Positions 1-33,528 of a DNA stretch of 64,000 nucleotides are shown here, piece by piece. Each line of letters begins with the position of its first letter. Positions within the stretch are counted from its first letter, which is position 1. The position numbers and the translations under genes are program-made. Origin of the DNA: Escherichia phage vB_EcoM_ESCO8; sequence record OM386653.1. One strand, given 5' to 3'. The notes beneath the pieces are model-generated. The model did no database searches and had not been told where the DNA came from. It saw nothing but the letters and a program-made list of their open reading frames with translations.

Positions 1-330
1 ATTTGATAGTTTATTCCTTTGATGTTTTGTTGTTTGATAGTTATTAGCTATCAATATATAGCGGGATCTTCCGGTGATTATCTTCCCCTGTCCCCAGGTG
101 CCGCCCGTTCCATAATAATAATCAAAAGCAGGGTAAAAGGCAAGATAAAAAGCAAATTATTTCCTATGTGCTTTAAACGCTCTAGATAGCTTTATAACGG
201 CTTTTTCATCCTGGTAAGGTGATTAATCATCACTACCTTGTTTAAGCGGTTATAATCGGTTTTAGGCTGTTTTACGCCACCTTTACGCCTATTCTTTACG
301 TGTTGTTTCCATCGTGAAAAAAGAATACAA

Positions 331-360
331 AAAAGGGCGCTTAGTGCGCCCCTTTCTTTT
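331..360 (-). terminator. Rho-independent terminator-like hairpin (bidirectional)
   Basis: GGGCGC-ttagt-GCGCCC stem-loop at 335-351 flanked by A-run and T-rich tract, immediately 3' of minus-strand ORF 369..758. Confidence 0.55.
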
Positions 361-368
361 ACCGTGTA

Positions 369-758
369 TTAATATTCGTTATAATACATCGCTAATTTTT
401 CATCAAAAGCTGATTGACGATCCGCATACTCCCAGAACATTTCCTGATCCTGTTGTTCGTCATCATCCATCATGTTGAATTGCGCAACCTCCTGGTAAGT
501 GATCGCTATATTATAACGATAGGTGATCTCTTCTGCGATGTTTTCCGGTAAAGATGATTCTACACTGTCTAACAGCATATCTAACATCATTTCAGCCGCT
601 TTTTCATCATTATCAAAGCAGTAAGCAGACCATGCCGCATGATGTTTATTTTTCATCTTTGCAATCAAGCCGTTTACTAAAAAAGGCGCTACGTTGTTAA
701 CGATACCCTGTAAAGATTGGAATTTTTCAACGTTAGAAACAGAAACCAGGTTGCGCAT
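369..758 (-). CDS. hypothetical early protein, acidic C-terminus
   Basis: ORF track 129 aa; no domain recognised. Confidence 0.55.
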   Translation of the reverse strand: MRNLVSVSNVEKFQSLQGIVNNVAPFLVNGLIAKMKNKHHAAWSAYCFDNDEKAAEMMLDMLLDSVESSLPENIAEEITYRYNIAITYQEVAQFNMMDDDEQQDQEMFWEYADRQSAFDEKLAMYYNEY

Positions 759-813
759 AGTATTTACCTTTTTTGATTACCTGGCGGGAAACCATTTCCC
801 GCCTACGTGGTAA

Positions 814-841
814 ATAATACCATATTGGGGATCGGTGTCAA
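814..841 (-). promoter_or_regulatory. sigma70-like early promoter with 5' leader hairpin
   Basis: Minus strand reads TTGACA-16nt-TATTAT; conserved hairpin GGCGGGAAACCATTTCCCGCC (783-803) lies at predicted transcript 5' end upstream of ORF starting at 758. Confidence 0.5.
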
Positions 842-847
842 TACTTT

Positions 848-1234
848 TTATTCAATATAAATCAAATTATCTTCACCAATGTAAGCATGCACCGATGGCA
901 TTAATTTAGCTGCATTTGTTAGGCGGTTGGCGGTGTTAGTAGTGTATATTTCAGGGCGATCCCAAAAGCCTACGCCGTGACCGTTACGGGTGAAATGTAA
1001 GTCATTCCCGATCTGGTTTGCTGTTGCGCCGTCGCTCATTGCCTCAGAGATAGCAGCATCATTGGCATCACAATAAGCCGCTACGTCATGAATGATCCGC
1101 TGATGGGCTTGATCTGAAAAATCATAATCGTCTAAGTTATCAATAAAATAGCCTTCATGATCCCTGGCTGATTCAGCAAAAATAAAGGCTTCTTTATAAC
1201 CGTTGATGATTTCAATAATGATTTCAGTTTTCAT
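848..1234 (-). CDS. hypothetical protein
   Basis: ORF track 128 aa; no domain recognised. Confidence 0.55.
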   Translation of the reverse strand: MKTEIIIEIINGYKEAFIFAESARDHEGYFIDNLDDYDFSDQAHQRIIHDVAAYCDANDAAISEAMSDGATANQIGNDLHFTRNGHGVGFWDRPEIYTTNTANRLTNAAKLMPSVHAYIGEDNLIYIE

Positions 1235-1464
1235 GCTGTACGCTCGACAATAATAATGGTTTGCGGGATCTCGTTTTCTACTACTAACAAGGCTTTTTTC
1301 TGTGTGATAGATATTTTAACACGTTGTAAAGTAGCGGTAAAATCTTTCATTTCATTATGCGCGGATTTAGTGCAATGCCAGATCTCAGGTTTACCTATTT
1401 GCAAGCCGCGTAAAAATTCTGTTTTACCTGTCTTATTCGTGATCATTTGATTCACCTTATCCAA
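1231..1464 (-). CDS. hypothetical protein
   Basis: ORF track 77 aa; start overlaps upstream stop (ATGA). Confidence 0.5.
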   Translation of the reverse strand: MDKVNQMITNKTGKTEFLRGLQIGKPEIWHCTKSAHNEMKDFTATLQRVKISITQKKALLVVENEIPQTIIIVERTA

Positions 1465-1561
1465 TACCGTGGGAAGATAGGATCATGTTAGCCATAGTTG
1501 CAACCAATCCAACCGATAACGCCAGGCCAACTACTACAACCGTGAAAATTTTCTCTAACAT
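1457..1561 (-). CDS. small hydrophobic peptide (34 aa, putative membrane)
   Basis: Manually read ORF MLEKIFTVVVVGLALSVGLVATMANMILSSHGIG, below ORF-track cutoff; single predicted TM helix. Confidence 0.3.
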   Translation of the reverse strand: MLEKIFTVVVVGLALSVGLVATMANMILSSHGIG

Positions 1562-1642
1562 GATTCTACCCTCATTAATGGGCGTTGCCTTATTGCCCCG
1601 CCCTATGTCGTACACTTTACCAGATAACAGCATATTGTCAAA

Positions 1643-1867
1643 CTATTTTTTATAAGGGATCAGTAAACTTCTCGCTATTGCTTCACGTAAACCTTTACTT
1701 TTTATTAGATCTATTGTTGCAGGGTGGCAAGTAAAAGCCTTTGACCATTTTTGATCACCTGGTTTACGGGCGAAAATGTAAACTTCTCCGTCGATTTCAT
1801 CCCAACGAGTATTGCTTGTTAGTTTTTTAAGCGCCATGCTGATTTCTCTTTTAGTTGTGAGCGGCAC
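1643..1867 (-). CDS. hypothetical protein
   Basis: ORF track 74 aa; preceded by conserved leader hairpin 1859-1878. Confidence 0.5.
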   Translation of the reverse strand: MPLTTKREISMALKKLTSNTRWDEIDGEVYIFARKPGDQKWSKAFTCHPATIDLIKSKGLREAIARSLLIPYKK

Positions 1868-1917
1868 TATTGCCGCCCTACGAAATACATTCTACCCGAT
1901 TTATAATTGTTGTCAAA

Positions 1918-2187
1918 CTATTTTTTCAAGCTCGACCAGTCAAAACACGGGGCGATCTCGTTAAAACTTGTACCCTGTAAAGCACATAATTTTTTAGCAA
2001 TAGCCGCCGTAACCTGGCGTTGTACGCGAGGATCTGCTACTGATTGGAGAAAGTAGGCGGCTTTATATGTGATCATGCTTTCGCCTGTTTCCTTGTTAAC
2101 GTGGTGCACGGTTTTAGCCTTATCATCTTTTACCAGGGTGTAACCGGATTCGATGGCCTTGATTGCAACGTCCAAAGATATTTTCAT
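1918..2187 (-). CDS. hypothetical protein
   Basis: ORF track 89 aa. Confidence 0.5.
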   Translation of the reverse strand: MKISLDVAIKAIESGYTLVKDDKAKTVHHVNKETGESMITYKAAYFLQSVADPRVQRQVTAAIAKKLCALQGTSFNEIAPCFDWSSLKK

Positions 2188-2234
2188 GATTTACCTCTTT
2201 ATTGACGGCGGGGAATACTCCCCCGCCTTATTAA

Positions 2235-2435
2235 TTACTCTTCATCGTCGCCGTTATAGTATTCAATGCCGTTTTCATCGGTTACAGTAATGTTAACGCC
2301 ACCGATAGCAACACGATCACGGGCAAACGTCATGGCTTCATTTAAATCTTCAGACCAAAAAATATTGTGACCTTTGCGCGATACGTAAAACATAGTTGGG
2401 ATCATGATTTGTTTCTCTTCTGTTATGAGCGGCAC
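2235..2435 (-). CDS. hypothetical protein
   Basis: ORF track 66 aa; leader hairpin 2427-2446 upstream. Confidence 0.5.
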   Translation of the reverse strand: MPLITEEKQIMIPTMFYVSRKGHNIFWSEDLNEAMTFARDRVAIGGVNITVTDENGIEYYNGDDEE

Positions 2436-2486
2436 TATTGCCGCCCTATGTGATAAACTTTACTACGTTGTTTGCCTAGTGTCAAA

Positions 2487-2771
2487 TTATTTTTTAATGT
2501 TTTGCCCTACAAAATTAATCACTTCCTTAAGCTGTTTCTCAGTCATGATCGTGCCTGGCAATTCTTCTTTGATTTCTTCCGGTAGATAGATATTACCGCG
2601 CCAGGTTAATAAACAACCGTTTTGATCTTCGCAGATAGAATAAGAGAAGATCCACTCATTATCATTCTCAAGCTCCCAAAAGCACAAAAAATCTTCTTTC
2701 CCCAGGTTTTCAACGGTTAAACATAAGCCGCGACGTGCTGCATAGTTGGAAAGTGCTTTTGTGATCTTCAT
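2487..2771 (-). CDS. hypothetical protein
   Basis: ORF track 94 aa; leader hairpin 2791-2812 upstream. Confidence 0.5.
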   Translation of the reverse strand: MKITKALSNYAARRGLCLTVENLGKEDFLCFWELENDNEWIFSYSICEDQNGCLLTWRGNIYLPEEIKEELPGTIMTEKQLKEVINFVGQNIKK

Positions 2772-2825
2772 AGCTTATCTCTTCTTTTAAGGCGGGGGAA
2801 ACCATTTCCCCGCTCTATGAGATAC

Positions 2826-2854
2826 AATATACTACCCGTTCAGTGTGCTGTCAA
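2826..2854 (-). promoter_or_regulatory. sigma70-like early promoter with leader hairpin
   Basis: Minus strand TTGACA-17nt-TATATT followed by hairpin 2791-2812. Confidence 0.5.
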
Positions 2855-3178
2855 TCAATAATCTTCAATATTTTCTACATTGACAAAAGCATGTTTATTT
2901 TCTAAGTTTTCGCCGTACCATTGCCCCATGTTGATTTCTGCGGTGCGCAACCAGGACATGCCGCGTTCTATCTTTTTGCTCGCAATGTCGATCCGGCTTT
3001 TGCATAGTGATTTAGCTTGCAATGTAAAAACACTATTGCCCTGTAATGCTTCCAGGTCATCATGTGCAAGGCGATACTCTTTAAAGCCTGATTCTATCAT
3101 TTCAATCGCATCAAGGAAACGAGCGCGATGATAGAAAAAATCAGAGTTATCCAAATAAACACCGATCACAGATTTCAT
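2855..3178 (-). CDS. hypothetical protein
   Basis: ORF track frame; start moved to internal ATG (MKSVIGV) preceded by AAAGGG RBS. Confidence 0.5.
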   Translation of the reverse strand: MKSVIGVYLDNSDFFYHRARFLDAIEMIESGFKEYRLAHDDLEALQGNSVFTLQAKSLCKSRIDIASKKIERGMSWLRTAEINMGQWYGENLENKHAFVNVENIEDY

Positions 3179-3507
3179 AATTTTACCCTTTTGTTTGCGG
3201 CCTTTGCCGTTTTCAAGATATAGTTTAAAGCATAACAAAAAATTGTCAAGCCTTTAAAGCGTACAACTATAAAACCTATTAAAACACAATGTATAATAAC
3301 ATGGCTATAGTAGCAATACAACATAAAGCCATGCTTGTTTTCCTTCCTTCCTCGTATGCTGGATTTATTACGCTATATTGTACGGGAATAATTTTCATGC
3401 TGTTTCCTTAATGTCTTAAAACGTGGTTTACAATAGAAACAAGCATACAGAAGAAAAAAGATCCTGTCAATAAGATACCGAAAAATAAATGTAAATAGGG
3501 CATGGTT

Positions 3508-3810
3508 TTACTCCTTAAAAAAATCATTGACAATTAAACTGATAACGCCCAGCACCAGATCACCAGGTAGCGCCGCGCTTTCGTTGTTGCTTGTTTGCAC
3601 TTCCTCACTAGTACCAGCATGATAAATCGCATGGTAAGCAATAGTATAATAACCTTTCGTTATTTCTTTAAGATTAATGATTAGCACGTTATTTGTTTCA
3701 TCTTGAAACAATTTAGCGGTGATAGTATTGTTTTCTTTTACACTATCGACTTTTATTGATGGATCATTTACACCAGAAAAAAGAAAAAACGTTTTAGCTA
3801 TGCCGTTCAT
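3508..3810 (-). CDS. hypothetical protein
   Basis: ORF track 100 aa. Confidence 0.5.
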   Translation of the reverse strand: MNGIAKTFFLFSGVNDPSIKVDSVKENNTITAKLFQDETNNVLIINLKEITKGYYTIAYHAIYHAGTSEEVQTSNNESAALPGDLVLGVISLIVNDFFKE

Positions 3811-3857
3811 GTAGTTCTCCTTTGTTGTGTGTATCTTATAACGTGCTTTCTATGTTG

Positions 3858-4259
3858 TCAATCTTTTATCTCGGTGCATTTTGCTAGGGTATACGTTGCA
3901 AGTGCTGACACTAGTTTTTCATTGCTACGATCTGCGGCTGTACTGTGTACTTTTTGAATACTTTTTAACCACGGCGTAAAATTTTGAGTAGTGAGCACAC
4001 TGGTAATAATTTCACATGGCACATCTTCATTTAAGCCATTAACAATAGATTTATCTATTTTTGCCGTTAGTTGTGTAACAGCACCATAAGCGATCATGTG
4101 TGAATCCTCCATGATTTCATCGGGGATCGCATTATTAATAAGCATGACGTTTTCCATTGCATCAACGGCGCTTAATTCTGCTACTGTGGAGGATATCGCC
4201 GCGCTAGATGTTCCAACCATGCCAAAAGAGATTAAACCAGCGATCAATAATTTTTTCAT
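3858..4259 (-). CDS. hypothetical secreted protein (signal peptide)
   Basis: ORF track frame; start at MKKLLIAGLISFGMVGTSSA with GAGG RBS; N-terminal Sec-type signal. Confidence 0.5.
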   Translation of the reverse strand: MKKLLIAGLISFGMVGTSSAAISSTVAELSAVDAMENVMLINNAIPDEIMEDSHMIAYGAVTQLTAKIDKSIVNGLNEDVPCEIITSVLTTQNFTPWLKSIQKVHSTAADRSNEKLVSALATYTLAKCTEIKD

Positions 4260-4267
4260 TTCTTGCC

Positions 4268-4450
4268 TCATATATGTTTTATTGAGATTATATTGTCACT
4301 ATATACAACGTTTTTCAACGTGTCAATAAAAATCTTATTGCCTTCAATCCCCAGGATCACGCCGCTAGTTATGAAGCCATATTGATCACGATATCTGGCG
4401 CATAACCTTTGCCCCTGGGCTAGTGCCTTGCTTATTTCTTCTAATCTCAT
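4268..4450 (-). CDS. hypothetical protein
   Basis: ORF track 60 aa. Confidence 0.4.
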   Translation of the reverse strand: MRLEEISKALAQGQRLCARYRDQYGFITSGVILGIEGNKIFIDTLKNVVYSDNIISIKHI

Positions 4451-4720
4451 TTTAAAGCTCCTGTAAAGCCGTCTAACGTTGATTTATAGGCTTGCCCTGG
4501 CGTTACCATTGCCTATGGGTAACAAGCCTCTATATAAGCTAAAAGGGCGCTTATTGCGCCCTTTTTGTTATTCGTTCCAGTATCTTTTTGTGCTGCGATC
4601 TCTTTTTGTTTTGTTCCGCTTATCGCCTTTTTTGGTGATCTCTTCGTTCCAATTTTTACGCGCCTTGCTGCGGTTGAATTTTTCGATCTGCTGTGATGCG
4701 TTCATGTTTTTTCCTCTTAA

Positions 4721-5080
4721 TTACGCCACGTTATGCTGTTTTGCCAGGGTTACGATCATGCTTGCAATATATAACCAATAATTTTCCCGCTCACGGGTAA
4801 CGGTTGTTTCTTTACTTGTTTCTTTTATGTACTTCCATTCAATTAACAAGTGATCGATCTCGTTATAATCAAAAGCAATATTGATTTCTGACGGTAAACC
4901 TTGTAACCAGGAGGCTATCGCCTTGATCATGTTATGATTGTAACGTTTTTGATTATCGGGATACCAGTATTCAGATTTAAAACGGCGCATCAGTTCGGTG
5001 ATCTTTTCTTTTTCTGTTGTAGTACCATTAAAAGAAATAGCCGACACAATGTAAGTTTTAATTGCTTTTACTGATTTCAT
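4721..5080 (-). CDS. hypothetical protein
   Basis: ORF track 119 aa; leader hairpin 5101-5121 upstream. Confidence 0.55.
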   Translation of the reverse strand: MKSVKAIKTYIVSAISFNGTTTEKEKITELMRRFKSEYWYPDNQKRYNHNMIKAIASWLQGLPSEINIAFDYNEIDHLLIEWKYIKETSKETTVTRERENYWLYIASMIVTLAKQHNVA

Positions 5081-5130
5081 AATCTTATCTCTTTATTGAT
5101 GGCGGGAAACCATTTCCCGCCGTTGTTGTT

Positions 5131-5159
5131 ACTTTACTTATAAATCATGCTACTGTCAA
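5131..5159 (-). promoter_or_regulatory. sigma70-like early promoter with leader hairpin
   Basis: Minus strand TTGACA-17nt-TAAAGT then hairpin GGCGGGAAATGGTTTCCCGCC (5101-5121). Confidence 0.45.
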
Positions 5160-5169
5160 GCGGATATTA

Positions 5170-5337
5170 TTTATTTTTTAACGTTAATGTTCCCAGCTTA
5201 TCAGCGTGACGCAGACCAGGGAAGATCCATTTTCCTGATTCATCTTTTACCGGGGCTTTAAGCGTAGCGCCCAAGTTGGCGGCATTAACTTTACGTGCAA
5301 CGTTGCGAGCGGCTTCACGGGTGGCGAAAGTGATCAT
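5170..5337 (-). CDS. hypothetical small protein (55 aa)
   Basis: Manually read ORF MITFATREAARNVARKVNAANLGATLKAPVKDESGKWIFPGLRHADKLGTLTLKNK with GAGG-type RBS; below ORF-track cutoff. Confidence 0.4.
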
Positions 5338-5408
5338 GGTGTTTTCCTCTTCTCTTTGTTAGGCGGTTGGCTATTCCACCGCCTTGATGAATACAGTTTA
5401 CTCTATTT

Positions 5409-5567
5409 TTATTTCTTTGCAACTACTTTTATATTTTCTTTCTTTGCCTCTTCCACCTGATCCGCCCACTGCTTACCCCACGTTTGAGCGTTATAGTGAT
5501 ATTGACAAAGAGCAACGCCACGTTTTAAACCAGAGATAGACTTTTTACCACATTGGCAAGTTTTCAT
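5409..5567 (-). CDS. hypothetical small Cys-rich protein (52 aa, zinc-ribbon-like)
   Basis: Manually read ORF MKTCQCGKKSISGLKRGVALCQYHY...; CxC...CxxH pattern; AAGGG RBS. Confidence 0.4.
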   Translation of the reverse strand: MKTCQCGKKSISGLKRGVALCQYHYNAQTWGKQWADQVEEAKKENIKVVAKK

Positions 5568-5578
5568 TTTGTGATCCC

Positions 5579-5842
5579 TTAGTTGATAATTGTCAAAGTA
5601 AAATCATAATCTTTTGACAGTTTATATTGCACCTTGTTACCGTATATGTCACCTTTACGTAAAGATCCACGGATACCGATAACATCCTTCACGTCTTTTA
5701 AATTTTTCACGCCTGTAATGTCTTTGTTGAAATACTCGTCATCTGAAAATAAAACTTGACTTGCATTTTTTAACAGTGTGCGGATATTAGCCATTTTGAT
5801 AATCTCTCTTACTATGAGCGGCACTATTGCCGCCCTATGCAT
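5579..5842 (-). CDS. hypothetical protein
   Basis: ORF track 87 aa; hairpin 5806-5825 lies inside the 5' end of this ORF as tracked, so the true start may be an internal ATG. Confidence 0.5.
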   Translation of the reverse strand: MHRAAIVPLIVREIIKMANIRTLLKNASQVLFSDDEYFNKDITGVKNLKDVKDVIGIRGSLRKGDIYGNKVQYKLSKDYDFTLTIIN

Positions 5843-5881
5843 TACATTTTACTGATTTTAGTTATCTTGTCAAGATTATTT

Positions 5882-6109
5882 TTAGTTTAATCCATCCAGG
5901 CACAACAAGCGATCAACATTCAGATCGGTTAGGCTAATCGTTGGCACCTGGTAGGATTCGATGTACTCAACGCTCGACCATTGCCCGAAGTTAGCGACCG
6001 CCCAGCTATTCAAGGAAGAGTGAAGATCATCCCCTTTCTTCTCGGTGATAACTGCTACTACCTGGGAGCTTCCAACCGTACCGGATACGCGAACAATAAC
6101 GATAGCCAT
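5882..6109 (-). CDS. hypothetical protein
   Basis: ORF track 75 aa; leader hairpin 6123-6143 upstream. Confidence 0.5.
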   Translation of the reverse strand: MAIVIVRVSGTVGSSQVVAVITEKKGDDLHSSLNSWAVANFGQWSSVEYIESYQVPTISLTDLNVDRLLCLDGLN

Positions 6110-6154
6110 AATGATAACCTTTCTTTGATTTGGCGGGAAACCATTTCCCGCCCT

Positions 6155-6182
6155 ATGTGATATATCTTACACTAATTTAAAA
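6155..6182 (-). promoter_or_regulatory. sigma70-like early promoter with leader hairpin
   Basis: Minus strand TTGACA-16nt-TAAGAT followed by hairpin 6123-6143. Confidence 0.5.
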
Positions 6183-6286
6183 CGTTGTCAAATTATTTTC
6201 TATTTCTTCCGTAATAGCCTAATTTATGATCTAAGCTAAAACGTTTTGTGAGATAGGTCGAACGATGTTTCATTTTTATATCTCCT

Positions 6287-6526
6287 TTACATTCCAACCA
6301 TCGCGGCGCGGATTGCAGTTTTACTGAACTTGTAACCGTCTGGCGTTTTATCTTGATCCATACTTTCAAGAAATAACATCATATCACGCGCTGCGTCATT
6401 CTTATTGGTGTTAGCTGCGATAAATTCACGCGCAAGATTATAAAAACCTTCATCATTGTTGATCCAAAGGCTTACATTCCAATGAGTTTTGTTTTTGTGA
6501 CCTAAGAACATTTTTGATTTAGCCAT
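6287..6526 (-). CDS. hypothetical protein
   Basis: ORF track 79 aa; leader hairpin 6551-6567. Confidence 0.5.
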   Translation of the reverse strand: MAKSKMFLGHKNKTHWNVSLWINNDEGFYNLAREFIAANTNKNDAARDMMLFLESMDQDKTPDGYKFSKTAIRAAMVGM

Positions 6527-6614
6527 GATGTTAATCTCTTTTTCAGTGAGGCGGGAACTATTCCCGCTCTCTATGTAATACAGTTTACTCTTTTTATTCG
6601 TGCTGTCAATGCTT

Positions 6615-6980
6615 TTATAAATCTTTTTTACGTTTTACATCGCTTGCATGACTGTATACAGTGATCCCATTGTCACGGCAAAAACGGGAAAGGTAGGCAT
6701 AATTTGAAAACTCTTTACCTTCCAGGTTGATAACCTTGCTAAATTCTTCCATTGCTACAGTGTCAAAGTGATCCCCGTATCCATATTGGAACGGCACGTT
6801 TACTACTTCGATCAGTTTACCGCCGATCTCAACGTCAACCATCAAAGAGAAATAAGTATTACCATAAGACTTTTGAAACCAGCGACGGGCGCTAATATGT
6901 ACCGCTTCAATGCTGGATAGTTCAATTTTAGCAGTGTTAGCCAGGGTAGCATAAGCAGAAACATTGATATTTTTAGCCAT
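6615..6980 (-). CDS. hypothetical protein
   Basis: ORF track 121 aa. Confidence 0.55.
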   Translation of the reverse strand: MAKNINVSAYATLANTAKIELSSIEAVHISARRWFQKSYGNTYFSLMVDVEIGGKLIEVVNVPFQYGYGDHFDTVAMEEFSKVINLEGKEFSNYAYLSRFCRDNGITVYSHASDVKRKKDL

Positions 6981-7075
6981 AGTCTTTAATCTCTTTTGAT
7001 TAGTTAGGAGTATTCCCGATAAAAGTTATTATGCTTGTACTATCGTTCGTTGTCAATAGCACAAGACTAAAACTT

Positions 7076-7255
7076 TTAACGATAATCATCATAGGCTTTA
7101 TTGACCTGGCGAATATAGCATTCAAAAGCTAGATCAATAGATTTATATTCACGGATATAATCACCATAGGAAACCACATACATTTCTATAGCTTCCTCAT
7201 ATGCCAAGATGATAGAATCTAAACCTACGATCTCAGTCTTTGCAATAATAGCCAT
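7076..7255 (-). CDS. hypothetical small protein (59 aa)
   Basis: Manually read ORF MAIIAKTEIVGLDSIILAYEEAIEMYVVSYGDY...; just below ORF-track cutoff. Confidence 0.35.
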   Translation of the reverse strand: MAIIAKTEIVGLDSIILAYEEAIEMYVVSYGDYIREYKSIDLAFECYIRQVNKAYDDYR

Positions 7256-7401
7256 GCTTTTATTCCTTAGTAATGTTTCAATCTATATAAGCATTATAGC
7301 TTACTGATTTCAGGTGTCAAGTGATTTTTTATTTCACCTTATGGGGCGTTGCCCCGCTTTATGTGGTACATATTACGGGGCTTGTTTGCATATGTCAAGC
7401 C

Positions 7402-7947
7402 TTACACAATACAATTTTCATAATTTTTTAGGGCTTGTCTTTTTTCCTCTTCTGTCGGCATGTATGGCTGGATCTCTTCCTCTTCCAGGGTAGGCATGAT
7501 TTCTTCCTCTTCCTCCTGGTCTTCCTCTTGCGCTACGGCAACAAGTTTATTGATCTTCTCCTGGGCTTTAATCAATTTTGCATCTAGCACCATTTTAGCG
7601 GTGTTGTATACCGTCCATGCCATGCGTTTTTCTTCGTATGCTTTATCTAGTGCGGCTAATTTAGCGGGATACTCTTCTAACACCTTAAAAGCCGGATCAA
7701 TGCTATATAAGGGATTATTTTTAGCGTCATCGCTTGGATCTGCGGCGCTTGCAATGTCAGCGTTACCATTTGCCAGCCAACCAGGGCGAACGGATCGCGT
7801 CTTTGTGTGCCCGTTGCTCTTTGCCGCTCGATTCCCTATCTGCTCCCCGCTGTACCCTTCCATGTGATCGATCATGTCATCTGGTATTATGCGCGGATCA
7901 TTAGCGTCATGCTTTACCCATGACTGGATCACATATTCACGCCCCAT
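7402..7947 (-). CDS. hypothetical protein with highly acidic E-rich segment
   Basis: ORF track 181 aa; poly-Glu stretch; antisense ORF 7460..7867 judged shadow. Confidence 0.55.
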   Translation of the reverse strand: MGREYVIQSWVKHDANDPRIIPDDMIDHMEGYSGEQIGNRAAKSNGHTKTRSVRPGWLANGNADIASAADPSDDAKNNPLYSIDPAFKVLEEYPAKLAALDKAYEEKRMAWTVYNTAKMVLDAKLIKAQEKINKLVAVAQEEDQEEEEEIMPTLEEEEIQPYMPTEEEKRQALKNYENCIV

Positions 7948-8209
7948 GTTCGTTCGCCTCTTCTGTTAGTAGTTTACACACCTTAAACATGCTTGCCGCG
8001 TCTTTTGACGGTAGCCAGCCTATGCGATACACTCCAGGATCTGGATTCGTTATATCTGTTAATTGAGCGTTACGATGATTAAAGATAGTGTAACCGCCAC
8101 CAGCACGGGGATAAACATTATCTTTAAACCTGATAGCGTATCTCGCCAGGTTGAACGTTGTAGCATGTTCAAAAGCGATCACATTATCAAAAACTTTTAG
8201 AAAAAACAA
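7937..8209 (-). CDS. hypothetical protein
   Basis: ORF track 90 aa. Confidence 0.5.
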   Translation of the reverse strand: MFFLKVFDNVIAFEHATTFNLARYAIRFKDNVYPRAGGGYTIFNHRNAQLTDITNPDPGVYRIGWLPSKDAASMFKVCKLLTEEANEHGA

Positions 8210-8436
8210 GATTATCCTCCCCAGCGTTTAAAGCCCGTTGCACGGTTATTTTTTAACTCTCGTTTTAGTCTCTTGCAACGGTTTACAAGTGCAAACCGTG
8301 CCGGAGTTGTAACAGTAGCGCCGTTTTTGGTGTGAATACTCATTACATATTGTTTCATAAAGTTTTATCCTATGTAAGCGGGAATAGTTCCCGCTTTAAG
8401 ATAGCTTATCAGGTTTTAGTGCAATGTTAACCGTTT

Positions 8437-8799
8437 TTATTCGTAAATTTTACCGCTTTCTACCCATACCATAACACGGCGCATGTTATCCCATGCATCT
8501 TGTCGCAGATTTAAGGCATGCAATTCTTCGGTTGTGCTCATACCTGGTACGGGCTTGCTATATGTTACAAAGAGATCGCCAGCATATTCATAAGCCAGGG
8601 TAAGATCACATTGAATCATCTTTTTAAGCATAGCATTAAGCATCATATTAGCGGCATGTTGATCACGTTTTAGCGGTAGCGTTGCGATCTGTGAGCGATA
8701 GCTTTCGATCCGTGCATCCACTGCATCACGTGGAAGATTTTTCACGTCGTCGCGGAAAGATACCAGGTTTAACATGATAGTATTGATTTGCTTGCTCAT
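8437..8799 (-). CDS. hypothetical protein
   Basis: ORF track 120 aa; leader hairpin 8822-8843 upstream. Confidence 0.55.
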   Translation of the reverse strand: MSKQINTIMLNLVSFRDDVKNLPRDAVDARIESYRSQIATLPLKRDQHAANMMLNAMLKKMIQCDLTLAYEYAGDLFVTYSKPVPGMSTTEELHALNLRQDAWDNMRRVMVWVESGKIYE

Positions 8800-8885
8800 T
8801 GCATTACCCTTTCTTTGATTTGGCGGGAAACCATTTCCCCGCCTTATGTGGTATATATTACAAAATTATTTTTAAGTGTCAAGCC

Positions 8886-9158
8886 TTAAAGCAAAAACGC
8901 TACATCTTGCGCTTTTAGTGTAGTGTCGATCATTTTCGGGCTTTTATAATCCACAAAGCGCGCGGTTTTTTCAATAACGAAGCCGAGATAATCTTGTTTA
9001 TTGAAATTACATTCTTTTTTAAATGTTTCCCGTGCCACGGTGATCGCTGCATCCAGGGATAAACGCCCATCAATATTGATGTTAGCGAAAGATCCGCCAC
9101 CGCGCATAGGTTTACCAGTGATGCCAGCTACGATCATTGATGCGCTATATGATGCCAT
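8886..9158 (-). CDS. hypothetical protein
   Basis: ORF track 90 aa; leader hairpin 9181-9200 upstream. Confidence 0.55.
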   Translation of the reverse strand: MASYSASMIVAGITGKPMRGGGSFANINIDGRLSLDAAITVARETFKKECNFNKQDYLGFVIEKTARFVDYKSPKMIDTTLKAQDVAFLL

Positions 9159-9210
9159 GATTATTTCTCTCTTCTGTTATGAGCGGCACTATTGCCGCCC
9201 TATGTGATAC

Positions 9211-9238
9211 ATCTTATCAGATTAAAAAACGTTGTCAA
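9211..9238 (-). promoter_or_regulatory. sigma70-like early promoter with leader hairpin
   Basis: Minus strand TTGACA-16nt-TAAGAT followed by hairpin GGGCGGCAATAGTGCCGCTC (9181-9200). Confidence 0.5.
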
Positions 9239-9246
9239 GAATATTT

Positions 9247-9342
9247 TTAAAAGATAATAACCGCTACTACAATCCAAAATGGAACGGCTAGAATGATAGC
9301 GTTAATCGTTCCAACCGTCAAGCTGTTTTCTTTCTTGATCAT
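9247..9342 (-). CDS. small hydrophobic peptide (31 aa)
   Basis: Manually read ORF MIKKENSLTVGTINAIILAVPFWIVVAVIIF; first ORF downstream of promoter 9470-9498. Confidence 0.3.
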   Translation of the reverse strand: MIKKENSLTVGTINAIILAVPFWIVVAVIIF

Positions 9343-9469
9343 CGTTATCAACCTTTTATAAGTAATGTTATTGTGACGGTGGATTGTGGAGATCCTCACC
9401 TTTGCCCGTCCTGCATTGCGCCCTCCTTTTGTTTATTGTCGTTGTGCCTCGCCCCCCTCGACAAGATGA

Positions 9470-9498
9470 ATAATACGCTACCAGGTGAGGAACGTCAA
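9470..9498 (-). promoter_or_regulatory. near-consensus sigma70 promoter (leftward, head of early gene array)
   Basis: Minus strand TTGACG-17nt-TATTAT; GC-rich ~120-nt leader follows. Confidence 0.5.
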
Positions 9499-9532
9499 CC
9501 CCTTTTTTAATCTTTTTTCATTTCTTTTTTGC

Positions 9533-9562
9533 TTGCTATCTATAAAGGAAAGGGGCTATTAT
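9533..9562 (+). promoter_or_regulatory. sigma70-like promoter (rightward)
   Basis: TTGCTA-18nt-TATTAT upstream of ORF starting 9610. Confidence 0.4.
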
Positions 9563-9609
9563 CTTTCTACCGCGCCAACCAGGGCGCACATCAAAGAAAG
9601 GGCGATACC

Positions 9610-9876
9610 ATGACAAATACTACTTTACACCTCATGCACTCATTAGGCTGGCAAGGCGGCACGGTGCACCAGGTAGCAAGCGCAACGGGCTTAAAGGTTG
9701 AAACCGTTCTCAACCTGGGCGATCATAAGGTGGAAGAAATAGATCATTTTGATACGTTCGCAAATGGTTATCTATGGGCTTGCAGTGGCGGCGGGGAAAG
9801 CAAGATCCCGCCAGGGGCGCGGGGCGACATGTATTTTTGGCTAGGTGTCCTATCCTGGCAAGAAAACAAAAAATAA
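9610..9876 (+). CDS. hypothetical protein (88 aa) in GC-rich island
   Basis: ORF track frame 9529..9876 trimmed to ATG with AAGGG-type RBS; local GC content clearly above surrounding AT-rich genes. Confidence 0.4.
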   Translation: MTNTTLHLMHSLGWQGGTVHQVASATGLKVETVLNLGDHKVEEIDHFDTFANGYLWACSGGGESKIPPGARGDMYFWLGVLSWQENKK

Positions 9877-9878
9877 TC

Positions 9879-9907
9879 TTGACAAGCCCAGGGATCGGGC
9901 TTATACT
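9879..9907 (+). promoter_or_regulatory. near-consensus sigma70 promoter (rightward)
   Basis: TTGACA-17nt-TATACT; spacer contains inverted repeat AGCCC/GGGCT; no obvious CDS downstream before repeat region. Confidence 0.5.
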
Positions 9908-10140
9908 GTTTTACATACAGAAGAGGAAGCGCCACCCCCACGGCGTAAAGGCGGGGCTAACATACCAGGGCACTACTGGTTGGAAGGTTGATCGCCGGTA
10001 GCTCGTCTAAAATAAATTTGTAAAGAAATGTAAAGATAAAAATAATCGCTTGCTTTTGTTGTTGGTTATGCTATTCTTATTGTATGGCGAGGGGACACGG
10101 GAGCGCGAGACAAACACCGCCCCTGCGCGTTATTCTCTAA

Positions 10141-10250
10141 ATGAGAAAATTCTCATTTGCTAATGATTCTCATTCTCTTACTGAGAATGATTATCACTTA
10201 CATACTTAAATGATAATGATTCTCATTTACAAATGAAAATGATTATCATA
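10141..10250. repeat. Cluster of Fur-box-like / ATGAGAA-TTCTCAT palindromic repeats
   Basis: Repeated units AATGATTCTCATT, GAGAATGATTATCA, AATGATAATGATTCTCATT, AATGAAAATGATTATCA resembling GATAATGATAATCATTATC. Confidence 0.45.
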
Positions 10251-10269: not shown

Positions 10270-10480
10270 GAAATTGAACTTTTCATTTTTGATTTTTCTA
10301 CGGAAAAAGGCAAAAAACTTTAAATAAACTGGGGAATTTTTAAAAAATTGAAGTTTTCATTTTCAAAATCTGGATAGAAATACGTACAAAAACTTTAAAT
10401 AATTTTGACCAAACTTGAACTTTTCATTTTCAAAATTTGTACCCAAAAATCTGTAAAAACTTTAAATAATTTTGTCCTTT
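10270..10480. repeat. Three tandem ~70-bp direct repeats (iteron-like)
   Basis: Unit TTGAAC/G-TTTTCATTTTCAAAAT...AACTTTAAATAA recurs at 10274, 10348, 10415 with 67-74 bp period. Confidence 0.6.
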
Positions 10481-27693: not shown

Positions 27694-28160
27694 ATTACGC
27701 CGGATATGAACCTGTTGACATGCTCAACGGTGATGGTGTAAGATGCTCTTTGTGGGTGAGCGGTTGTAGCCACGGTTGCCGTGGCTGCTTTAACCAGAAA
27801 GCCTGGTCGTATAACTACGGACAAGAGTTCACTACTGAAACATTAGATCTTATCTTGAAAGATTTATCTCGACCTTTCATTAAAGGATTAACAGTTTTAG
27901 GTGGTGAACCTCTTGACAAAGAGAACATTGACACTGTAGAGTATGTTCTTGAGAAGGTAAGAGATTGTTTTGGAAACAAAAAAGATATTGTCTTATATAC
28001 AGGATATCTTTTTGAAGAAATTCCAGAGAAAATTAAAAAACTGGTTGACATAGTAATAGATGGTAAGTATGATATGACTCAACCAACAACGAAACGTTAT
28101 AGAGGTTCAGATAATCAACGAATGTGGGTTAAGAAAGACAACATTTGGGAATCTGACTAA
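27690..28160 (+). CDS. nrdG: Anaerobic RNR activating protein (radical SAM)
   Basis: TTG start; N-terminus MNYAGYEPVDMLNGDGVRCSLWVSGCSHGCRGCFN closely parallels E. coli NrdG N-terminus as recalled. Confidence 0.85.
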   Translation: MNYAGYEPVDMLNGDGVRCSLWVSGCSHGCRGCFNQKAWSYNYGQEFTTETLDLILKDLSRPFIKGLTVLGGEPLDKENIDTVEYVLEKVRDCFGNKKDIVLYTGYLFEEIPEKIKKLVDIVIDGKYDMTQPTTKRYRGSDNQRMWVKKDNIWESD

Positions 28161-32443: not shown

Positions 32444-32471
32444 TTGACTTTCTTTAAAAACAGTTTATAGT
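32444..32471 (+). promoter_or_regulatory. sigma70-like promoter with leader hairpin ahead of TerC gene
   Basis: TTGACT-16nt-TATAGT followed by CATAGAG and hairpin GCGGAGGA-ttgt-CCTCCGC (32484-32502), same architecture as early-array promoters. Confidence 0.5.
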
Positions 32472-32520
32472 ATAAGACATAGAGCGGAGGATTGTCCTCC
32501 GCATTAAAGAGGAGAAAAGA

Positions 32521-33498
32521 ATGCAACTGGGTTTCCCAATTATTGATGTGGTTGTTTTAGTGGGTATTTTAGTCTTGTCGATTTGTATTGACTTCTTTGG
32601 ACACAGAGAAAACAAAGAAATTTCATTTAAATCTGCAATTGGCTGGTCAATTTTCTGGATTGGGGTATCATTAGCCTACTATGGTTTTGTATACTTCCAA
32701 CACGGTGCTGATTTTGCGAGCTTGTTCTTGAGTGGGTATGTGTTGGAGAAATCTCTTTCTGTAGATAACTTAGTAGTATTTGTAGCAGTATTCGCAAGTT
32801 TTGGTATTAAAAGCACACACTTGCAGCACAAGATTCTACTTTGGGGTATTGCAGGTGCGATTGTCTTCCGAGGTGTGTTTGTAGCAGTAGGTACTTACTT
32901 GTTGAGTTTGGGCTGGTATGTTAATATCTTCTTCGGTGCTGTCATCCTTTTCTGTGCGGCTAAAATGGTATTCGCTGGAGATAATGATGCAGAAGTTGAT
33001 TACTCTAAACACTGGGCTACTCGCATTGTTCGTAAGCTGTTCCCTGTATCTGATCAGATGGATGGTGAGAAGTTCTTCACAATCAAAAATGGTGTTCGTG
33101 TAGCAACTCCGGCTCTGGTTTGTGTGTTTGTAATGGAAATGGTTGACGTAATCTTTGCAGTAGACTCTGTTCCAGCAGTAATTGCAGTGACACAAGAACC
33201 TCTGCTGGTGTTCTCTTCGATGCTCTGTGCAATCTTAGGTTTACGTGCTCTGTTCTTTGTTCTTAGTGTTGCACTGAAGTATTTGGTTCATCTGGAGAAA
33301 GCAGTTATCGTAGTCCTGGTGTTTGTGGGTGTAAAACTGATGTATCACCCGTTTGCAGAAACTCTGCACGCAAAAGTGAGTTTCCTGCCAGCACACATTG
33401 ACCCGACGATCAGTATGTATATTGTGTTAGGTACTCTTGGGCTGGGTGTTCTTGCAAGTTTAATCTTCCCTGAAAAAGAAGACCAGGCTGTTGCTTAA
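32521..33498 (+). CDS. TerC-family integral membrane protein
   Basis: 325 aa, multi-TM; conserved EKSLSVDNLVVF and DVIFAVDSVPAV motifs. Confidence 0.75.
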   Translation: MQLGFPIIDVVVLVGILVLSICIDFFGHRENKEISFKSAIGWSIFWIGVSLAYYGFVYFQHGADFASLFLSGYVLEKSLSVDNLVVFVAVFASFGIKSTHLQHKILLWGIAGAIVFRGVFVAVGTYLLSLGWYVNIFFGAVILFCAAKMVFAGDNDAEVDYSKHWATRIVRKLFPVSDQMDGEKFFTIKNGVRVATPALVCVFVMEMVDVIFAVDSVPAVIAVTQEPLLVFSSMLCAILGLRALFFVLSVALKYLVHLEKAVIVVLVFVGVKLMYHPFAETLHAKVSFLPAHIDPTISMYIVLGTLGLGVLASLIFPEKEDQAVA

Positions 33499-33504
33499 TT
33501 CATT

Positions 33505-33528
33505 AAGCCCCTTCGGGGGCTTTATTGA
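33505..33528 (+). terminator. Rho-independent terminator
   Basis: AAGCCCC-ttcg-GGGGCTT followed by TATTGA. Confidence 0.55.

Follow-up and report, generated by a model that had tools for sequence, protein, structure and literature searches.

The 64,000-nucleotide (nt) stretch of Escherichia phage vB_EcoM_ESCO8 DNA analyzed here (OM386653.1), referred to in full as the window, belongs to a phi92-like Escherichia coli myophage of the genus Justusliebigvirus. The sequence of its first 10 kb matches that of two Escherichia phages, Nernie and Paula, at 97% identity; both are phi92-like myophages (Justusliebigvirus, Stephanstirmvirinae) with genomes of about 146 kb. Some 30 small genes are arrayed leftward over positions 369-9342, and most of these small early genes are preceded by a repeated unit of about 80 to 90 nt composed of a promoter, a hairpin, and a ribosome-binding site. 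This unit, called the cassette below, is present in 15 copies on the minus strand (759-9238), with a 16th on the plus strand in front of a TerC-family gene (Table 1). Searches of Pfam and PHROGs gave no function for the array proteins, the TerC protein, encoded outside the array, being the sole exception.

The unit as a whole constitutes a composite cassette for the expression of early genes. Thirteen intergenic regions of 80 to 89 nt each share a common plan, in which an A-rich stretch is followed by a -35 element, a spacer of 16 or 17 nt, a -10 element, the motif GTATYAC, a purine, UAG, the hairpin, an A-rich spacer with a Shine-Dalgarno sequence, and the ATG. Twelve of the 15 array copies carry TTGACA-N16/17-TAnnnT, two have weaker promoters, and one has none. 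The stem lies at a fixed distance of 9 to 12 nt past the -10 element (10 to 12 nt in most copies), and the hairpin itself measures 17 to 24 nt, with a G-rich 5' arm, a C-rich 3' arm, and a predicted stability of -12 to -16 kcal/mol. The spacer from hairpin to ATG (17 to 24 nt, 52% A) is unstructured and contains Shine-Dalgarno sequences of the AAGAG or AAAGG type. Several upstream genes end in a Lys-Lys-stop sequence, so that the A-tract 5' of the -35 element overlaps the end of the coding sequence.

With regard to these coding ends, many array proteins terminate in Lys-Lys or Lys-x-Lys, as seen at the gene ends at 848, 1643, 1918, 2487, 5167, and 5409 on the minus strand. AAAAAA(TAA) ends of this kind double as the A-tract, an UP-like element, of the next promoter, a coding/regulatory overlap.

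An initial annotation of this DNA had described at least 12 intergenic hairpins in the array, assigned to two families, with five preceded by a promoter and seven left unchecked. All the hairpins it listed are real, yet its count fell short, as a hairpin scan and a covariance model recovered 15 copies and placed three overlooked ones at 1580-1603, 5361-5384, and 7342-7356 (cassettes 2, 8, and 12). Exact searches, for which the chance expectation is zero matches, located the first motif, GGCGGGAAACCATTTCCCGCC, at 783 and 5101 and, with two mismatches, at 8822, but moved a copy given at 6123 to 6132; the second, GAGCGGCACTATTGCCGCCC, was found at 1859, 2427, and 9181, while a copy given at 5806 lies at 5816. 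The variants reported at 2207, 2791, 6551, and 8377 are genuine and were placed by the scan and the model at 2207, 2790, 6548, and 8376. The division into two families does not hold. GGGCGG is the 5' arm in either motif, compensatory changes (G-C exchanged for C-G) and variation in the loop account for the differences, and there is in fact one family.

The association of promoter and hairpin proved more general than first described. With the seven remaining hairpins now checked, 12 array hairpins are found to follow TTGACA-N16/17-TAnnnT, 9 to 11 nt past its -10 element, and the arrangement of a near-consensus sigma-70 promoter followed by a hairpin at a fixed distance holds for 14 of the 15 array copies, for the TerC copy, where the same design had been noted, and in four other phage genomes. 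The hairpin at 2207 lacks a promoter, as had been stated, and is alone among array copies in this respect. For the minus strand of 1-10000, the count of promoter matches is 19 and that of strict promoter-plus-hairpin cases 11; the corresponding means over 100 dinucleotide shuffles are 2.4 and 0.03. The other 54 kb, searched on both strands, yielded two strict cases, namely, the TerC copy and a chance match inside coding sequence.

Table 1. Cassettes of the window and two terminators of the array region
Feature	Coordinates (strand)	Promoter	-35 position	Hairpin	Gene and remarks
Cassette 1	759..841 (-)	TTGACA at 836-841, -10 at 814-819	841	783-803	Spacer, then ATG of gene 369-758
Cassette 2	1562..1641 (-)	TTGACA-16-TAAAGT	1641	1580-1603	ATG of 34-aa hydrophobic open reading frame 1457-1561
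Cassette 3	1838..1916 (-)	TTGACA-16-TAGAAT	1916	1859-1878	Gene 1643-1837
Half cassette	2188..2234 (-)	None		2207-2227	Right after stop of gene 2235-2405, then ribosome site of gene 1918-2187
Cassette 5	2406..2485 (-)	TTGACA-17-TAAAGT	2485	2427-2446	Gene 2235-2405
Cassette 6	2772..2854 (-)	TTGACA-17-TATATT	2854	2790-2816	Gene 2487-2771
Cassette 7	5081..5159 (-)	TTGACA-17-TAAAGT	5159	5101-5121	Gene 4721-5080; junction AACAACAAC instead of CACATAG
Cassette 8	5338..5422 (-)	TTGCAA-16-TAAACT (-10 at 5395-5400)	5417-5422	5361-5384	Gene 5167-5337; one partner of a muut crossover
Cassette 9	5795..5873 (-)	TTGACA-16-TAAAAT	5873	5816-5835	Gene 5579-5794; second muut-crossover partner, with cassette 8
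Cassette 10	6110..6191 (-)	TTGACA-16-TAAGAT	6191	6132-6152	Gene 5882-6109
Cassette 11	6527..6609 (-)	TTGACA-16-TAAACT	6609	6548-6571	Gene 6287-6526; site of a muut gene insertion
Cassette 12	7321..7398 (-)	TTGACA-17-TAATAT	7398	7342-7356	Weaker hairpin of 5 bp
Cassette 13	8359..8430 (-)	Weak TTAACA-16-TAAGCT (-10 at 8403-8408)	8425-8430	8376-8396	Gene 8212-8358; -35 is a muut crossover point
Cassette 14	8800..8882 (-)	TTGACA-16-TAATAT	8882	8822-8843	Gene 8437-8799
Cassette 15	9159..9238 (-)	TTGACA-16-TAAGAT	9238	9181-9200	Gene 8886-9158
Cassette 16 (TerC)	32444..32520 (+)	TTGACT-16-TATAGT, ..GACATAGA	32444	32484-32502	Spacer, then ATG at 32521
Intrinsic terminator	329..357 (-)				A-tract, GC stem, U-tract; closes the leftward array; contrast class
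Probable bidirectional terminator	4541..4565 (.)				AAAAGGGCGC..GCGCCCTTTT; mid-array; contrast class

A predicted leader hairpin selected as structure

The position of the hairpin relative to the probable transcription start is central to its interpretation. Across 83 distinct copies from five phages, the stretch past the -10 element has the consensus G-T-A-T-Y-A-C-R-T-A-G, with the C present in 73 and the purine in 78. The CACATAG junction noted initially is part of this consensus, GTATYAC-R-TAG, from which the cassette with its hairpin at 5101 deviates. A pyrimidine at -1 followed by a purine at +1 is the usual start-site context in E. coli. We infer from the sequence that transcription starts at the conserved purine, about 7 to 8 nt past the -10 element, which would place the hairpin at the 5' terminus of the mRNA; the geometry thus fits the earlier proposal that the hairpin opens the transcript, with a start position that is itself predicted. 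Leaders counted from this purine to the ATG are 47 to 51 nt long (44 nt for the TerC copy). Eight such predicted leaders fold as a single 5' hairpin after 3 to 4 unpaired nt, with minor extra pairing in three of them, a largely open ribosome site, and z-scores of -2.8 to -5.0.

Selection acts on the hairpin as a sense-strand structure. A covariance model run over 160 kb gave 92 hits, 91 of them on the gene-sense strand, and the 16 hits in the window are all cassettes. In the model-based alignment of the 92 hits, 81% of paired cells are complementary, compared with 70% in shuffles and 36 to 64% when the pairing partner is slid, and 96 cells are changed on both sides against 44 expected, a value reached in none of 500 shuffles; these counts are taken from paralogs aligned to the model. 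As an example, at pair 26:38 there are 42 copies with G-C and 20 with C-G, and at pair 27:37 there are 44 with A-U and 23 with G-C. A plain MAFFT alignment gives covariation in the same direction. RNAalifold predicted no structure from the plain MAFFT alignment of 41 cassettes, because stems of unequal length are misaligned in it; the structure was supplied by hand, and the covariance model was then used. G·U pairs are frequent on the sense strand, and owing to them the sense fold is better than the antisense fold in 8 of the 15 window copies and at least as stable in 14.

A search of the window against Rfam produced no match at the gathering score. The sole subthreshold hit, to the unrelated small RNA RT-17 (7255-7353, minus strand), scores 27.4 bits where the gathering score is 40.4 (E = 0.08) and overlaps the intergenic region with tandem promoters that includes cassette 12, after whose hairpin a second consensus promoter without a hairpin (7293-7320) precedes gene 7076-7255. 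This hit is probably due to chance.

The hairpins already carry a label in GenBank. In the records of Paula and ASO2A they are annotated as terminators, with TransTermHP/WebGeSTer named in ASO2A, and the authors who described comparable stem-loops in T4-like phages, discussed below, took a similar view of theirs, having observed that one RB49 stem-loop cut lacZ expression as much as rrnB T1 (PMC2839356). If the cassette hairpins likewise were terminators or attenuators that halt transcription from upstream promoters, their stable stems would suit the role; indeed, they share with intrinsic terminators a GC-rich stem of 7 to 10 bp, a short loop, and an intergenic position. The initial annotation had nevertheless set them apart from classical terminators for want of a U-tract, and the present data agree. 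In 84 of 88 copies, the 8 nt past the hairpin contain 0 to 3 U, and no copy has as many as 5, an A-rich tail standing where the U-tract should be, and a terminator scan flagged no cassette hairpin on the sense strand. The annotations in Paula lie on the antisense strand, and those in ASO2A come directly after an annotated promoter. As each hairpin lies 3' of its own promoter, its own transcript would abort after about 25 nt. Genuine terminators in the window, by contrast, have A- and U-tracts in an AAA-stem-TTT form (e.g., 329-357, 4541-4565, 12451, 25852, 29348, and 53223), and such canonical terminators are used where arrays end. We therefore regard the GenBank label as unlikely to be correct, and a role of the hairpins in halting transcription as highly improbable. 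By the same reasoning, dozens of hairpins that directly follow promoters in phi92-, phAPEC8-, and rV5-like genomes, and that are listed there as "rho-independent terminators," are most likely 5' leaders, which would amount to a systematic annotation error.

Cassettes as crossover points and their recurrence in several phage lineages

What the initial annotation missed is that the whole unit of about 80 nt is a recombination module. Of four indels relative to phage muut, which is 97% identical, three are crossovers that join cassettes in register. In the first, 5403-5829 of the window (two genes) is missing from muut, where the promoter of the cassette at 5873 is joined to the leader of the cassette at 5361 by a crossover in the -10 element. 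The second is an extra muut gene at window position 6578/6580, and here the window cassette consists of the promoter of one muut cassette and the hairpin of the other. The third, with 8439-9490 (three genes) missing in muut, has its crossover in the -35 element. Similarly, long matches to phage tuntematon have 18 ends, of which 11 lie inside cassettes (these span roughly 15% of the sequence), and one cassette-flanked gene is transposed. The cassette is thus a preferred crossover point. A single indel in phage Eryne (gene 5409-5567) lacks two flanking cassettes, and therefore not every indel is cassette mediated. It can be envisaged that the likeness between units allows homologous recombination to delete, insert, and exchange small genes, and that each crossover product would keep a working promoter-leader hybrid, as proposed for the T4-like elements considered below.

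The cassette is common to three lineages of large E. coli myophages. Within Paula, the design is limited to about 9 kb beside the divergent control region and to TerC, and the tightly packed genes further left hold one more copy only. The same geometry is present at 18 of 22 promoters in tuntematon (Phapecoctavirus) and at a minority of promoters in FV3 and LTH01 (Vequintavirinae), and the first 9 kb of the jumbo phage EJP2 (Asteriusvirus) contain 13 distinct model hits. Two cassette-bounded modules of the window recur in FV3, where they are about 90% identical and separated by another gene. Array genes also match Asteriusvirus phages; EJP2 shares the bare unit, and cassette 11 of the window (6547-6609) is 87.5% identical to an EJP2 cassette over 64 nt. 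The loop variants are genus specific, AAUAGU being found in every Justusliebigvirus copy and AAUGGU in every Phapecoctavirus copy, and orthologous genes sometimes have different hairpin types, two observations that suggest exchange or conversion between cassettes. E. coli genomes yielded no copy of the cassette, which therefore does not derive from a host repeat or prophage.

An alternative -35 element, TTGCAA or TTGCAT, with TATAAT or TAAACT at a distance of 16 nt, recurs in front of many leader hairpins (EJP2 1-9000, LTH01, and window 5417-5422) and is especially frequent in EJP2. Relatives of this jumbo Asteriusvirus phage are believed to use their own RNA polymerases. GenBank records named as Campylobacter, Acinetobacter, Pseudomonas, and Enterococcus phages contain near-identical early-region sequence or cassettes, and these names are probably host mislabels or the result of contamination.

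Crossovers inside cassettes, genus-specific variants, modules exchanged across lineages, and perfect palindromes in many copies could also be accommodated by a role in DNA, with the palindrome serving a recombination linker as a cruciform or as the target of a nuclease or recombinase and being carried along with the promoter to no effect in RNA. However, the crossovers fall in the -35 element, the -10 element, and the stretch between the -10 element and the hairpin, all outside the palindrome. The G·U pairs that favor the sense RNA would be mismatches in a DNA cruciform, the orientation is strict (the G-rich arm is 5' on the sense strand in all but one of the 92 hits), and the distances to both the -10 element and the ATG are fixed. 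As such, the combination of covariation, G·U pairs, and sense-strand bias argues for mRNA structure rather than a cruciform, and we consider a function confined to DNA to be quite improbable.

The closest published concept is the promoter-early stem-loop (PeSL) of T4-like phages, described for RB49/phi1, PST/T4, and nt-1/KVP40 (Arbiol et al. 2010, PMC2839356; Comeau et al. 2014, PMC4122927). PeSLs and cassettes are both repeated intergenic composites of an AT-rich region, a near-consensus sigma-70 promoter, a G-rich/C-rich stem-loop, and a Shine-Dalgarno sequence; both are concentrated among small ORFan early genes, both include "half" elements, and in both, the junctions of indels or replacements between close relatives lie inside the motif. 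They differ in the placement of the stem-loop. In RB49 it lies within the promoter spacer, as seen directly in TTGACA-GGGGATC..GATCCCC-TATACT, and in PST and nt-1 it lies upstream of the promoter, its position varying over five subclasses, whereas the stem-loop of the cassette is always past the predicted start and would hence be transcribed as the 5' end. In addition, a terminator role is implausible for the cassette hairpins, and the phage lineages are different (Stephanstirmvirinae, Vequintavirinae, and Asteriusvirus). By eye, RB49 intergenic sequences are unrelated to the cassettes, and a blastn search with one cassette returned no Krischvirus among the matches listed. No published description of the cassette hairpins in these phages was found in the literature collection searched, and the rV5 paper lists promoters and terminators and no leader hairpins. 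The idea that regulatory cassettes act as recombination linkers that shuffle ORFans can thereby be extended beyond T4-like phages, on the basis of crossover junctions resolved to the base and evidence of exchange among three lineages, a jumbo phage included.

Proposed function of the leader hairpin

The cassette combines an element of the PeSL kind with a second known principle, that of the stabilizing 5'-terminal hairpin. The ompA and papA 5' stem-loops (Emory, Bouvet and Belasco 1992; reviewed in PMC3997798) resemble the cassette leader in having a stable hairpin a few nucleotides from the (here predicted) 5' end and an accessible ribosome site, and the expected consequence, hindrance of 5'-end-dependent decay by RNase E, is the same; RNase E cleavage is far slower when the 5' end is base paired (PMC3997798). 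Those stem-loops belong to single cellular genes, whereas the cassette hairpin, with a predicted start and a putative effect on stability, is modular and mobile, is used about 15 times in 9 kb, and recurs across phage lineages.

Our preferred interpretation, held with moderate confidence, is that the unit is a PeSL-like mobile expression cassette whose 5'-terminal leader hairpin probably stabilizes the mRNA. Among the functions suggested initially, namely, a stabilizing leader, an RNase processing site, and a binding site for a phage regulator, the first fits best. Host RNA polymerase with sigma-70 would start at the conserved purine, so that each early mRNA would open with 3 to 4 unpaired nt and then the hairpin. 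A hairpin so near the 5' end would be expected to hinder the route through RppH and the 5'-end-dependent action of RNase E, and the short early messages would consequently live longer, with a ribosome site kept open and free of upstream pairing. In read-through transcripts from upstream promoters, the hairpins may additionally separate cistrons structurally.

Several observations weigh against this interpretation. It has been reported that 5' hairpins stabilize E. coli mRNAs if no more than about 2 to 4 nt precede them, and the predicted tail of 3 to 4 nt, counted from the predicted start, would lie within about 4 nt, at the upper edge of the protective range. Six promoter matches in the array, with -35 elements at 3249, 3470, 3861, 4326, 7056, and 7320, have no hairpin, and the hairpin must therefore be dispensable for early expression. 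The promoter-less hairpin at 2207 is kept in two genera, which suggests an internal role or simple inheritance. The alignment of paralogs to the model biases the covariation counts toward structure, and conservation of the lower stem, GCGG/CCGC, could result from recent common descent and gene conversion and not from selection. A literature search for transcriptomic data or mapped start sites in Stephanstirmvirinae or Vequintavirinae found nothing relevant.

The promoter-less hairpin also bears on the possibility that the hairpins act mainly inside long read-through RNAs, as barriers to RNase E scanning or as protectors of 3' ends after cleavage in the A/U-rich flanks, their 5' position being incidental. 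As the array contains only two terminators, successive promoters should give nested, co-terminal transcripts in which such punctuation could operate, and tuntematon keeps a counterpart of the hairpin at 2207 in the corresponding position, with a different stem sequence. The offset from the -10 element is nevertheless tight (10 to 12 nt in most copies), and a conserved pyrimidine-purine step precedes the stem, both of which would be needless for an internal element, and the stems are too short for RNase III. Furthermore, hairpins seldom occur without any promoter (-35 match of at most 3/6; 1 of 16 in the window and 2 of 20 in tuntematon), while promoter matches without a hairpin are common (six in the window array and 4 of 22 in tuntematon), which fits a 5'-end role better than a general intercistronic one. 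It is unlikely, in our judgment, that punctuation of long transcripts is the main function.

A comparable assessment applies to the idea that a phage or host protein binds the hairpin, either for antitermination, in the manner of N at boxB, or for the translation or shut-off of early genes. The element is restricted to one temporal class of genes, and its promoter-proximal position recalls nutL; like lambda nut sites, with their boxA and boxB hairpin, it places a short hairpin near the promoter in early RNA. The lower stem is conserved in 60 to 74 of 83 copies, which speaks for such a role. The loops vary in both sequence and length (UGG, AUAG, AUGG, UAG, GUA, ACAAG, UUG, and others), however, and it is on this account that a sequence-specific regulator site is disfavored. 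A search of the window found no boxA, so that the pattern of a lambda-type nut site is absent; there is one copy per gene, and with hardly any terminators to override, the two in the array leave little to antiterminate. No Rfam family is matched, and the array proteins tested, all without an assigned function, offer no candidate binder. Protein recognition of this kind is, on balance, a doubtful explanation.

Two further candidates were considered. Processing by RNase III, of the type seen in T7 early RNA with about 20 bp of double-stranded RNA, is disfavored, as the stems comprise about 7 to 10 bp. A hairpin promoter of the N4 type was dropped, sigma-70 promoters already preceding the hairpins; these phages are not known to have a virion RNA polymerase.

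A bolder form of the stabilizing-leader proposal may also be put forward, although only as a speculation that we think unlikely. The unit would be a truly mobile regulatory element carrying ORFans between the unrelated lineages Stephanstirmvirinae, Vequintavirinae, and jumbo Asteriusvirus, and the hairpin would be a "self" tag that spares phage early mRNA from the decay of mRNA that the phage provokes in its host, for instance, by means of an RNase E activator resembling Srd, a role suggested for rV5 gp11, or else would be recognized by a dedicated factor. Were this true, the hairpin would be needed for early-gene expression in infected cells only. Irrespective of mechanism, the approximately 90 natural variants of one short 5' leader form a test set for the control of mRNA lifetime by 5' hairpins during takeover of the host, and the combination of strong promoter, leader hairpin, and open ribosome site could serve in engineering as a compact, insulated expression part.

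Neighboring features of the window

The gene that follows cassette 16 (32521-33498, plus strand) is of the TerC family (Pfam TerC, E = 1.2e-38) and ends at a terminator-like hairpin (33500-33528). This membrane-protein gene thus forms, over 32444-33528 on the plus strand, a self-contained unit with its own cassette promoter, leader hairpin, and terminator-like hairpin, and as it lies far from the early array it can be described as moron-like. Elsewhere on the plus strand, the stretch 27715-27788 contains a promoter, TTGACA-18-TAAGAT, and after it the strong hairpin GTAGCCACGGTTGCCGTGGCTGC, with a stability of -16.9 kcal/mol; this hairpin begins about 21 nt past the -10 element, a geometry unlike that of the cassettes.

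Very short open reading frames of 26 to 34 amino acids (aa), some of them hydrophobic, occur on the minus strand at 1457-1561, 3408-3503, 6193-6273, and 9247-9342. They occupy cassette positions with good ribosome sites, and several are unannotated in Paula. A tRNA scan detected no tRNA. To the right of the divergent promoters, a gene-free region (10158-10248 and 10270-10477) contains four 15-nt repeats, TGAnAATGATTnTCA, which resemble the E. coli Fur box, together with three AT-rich direct repeats in tandem, each about 67 nt long and 61 to 81% identical. Relatives carry a "repeat_region" annotation at the corresponding region, and it may represent an origin or a regulatory region.

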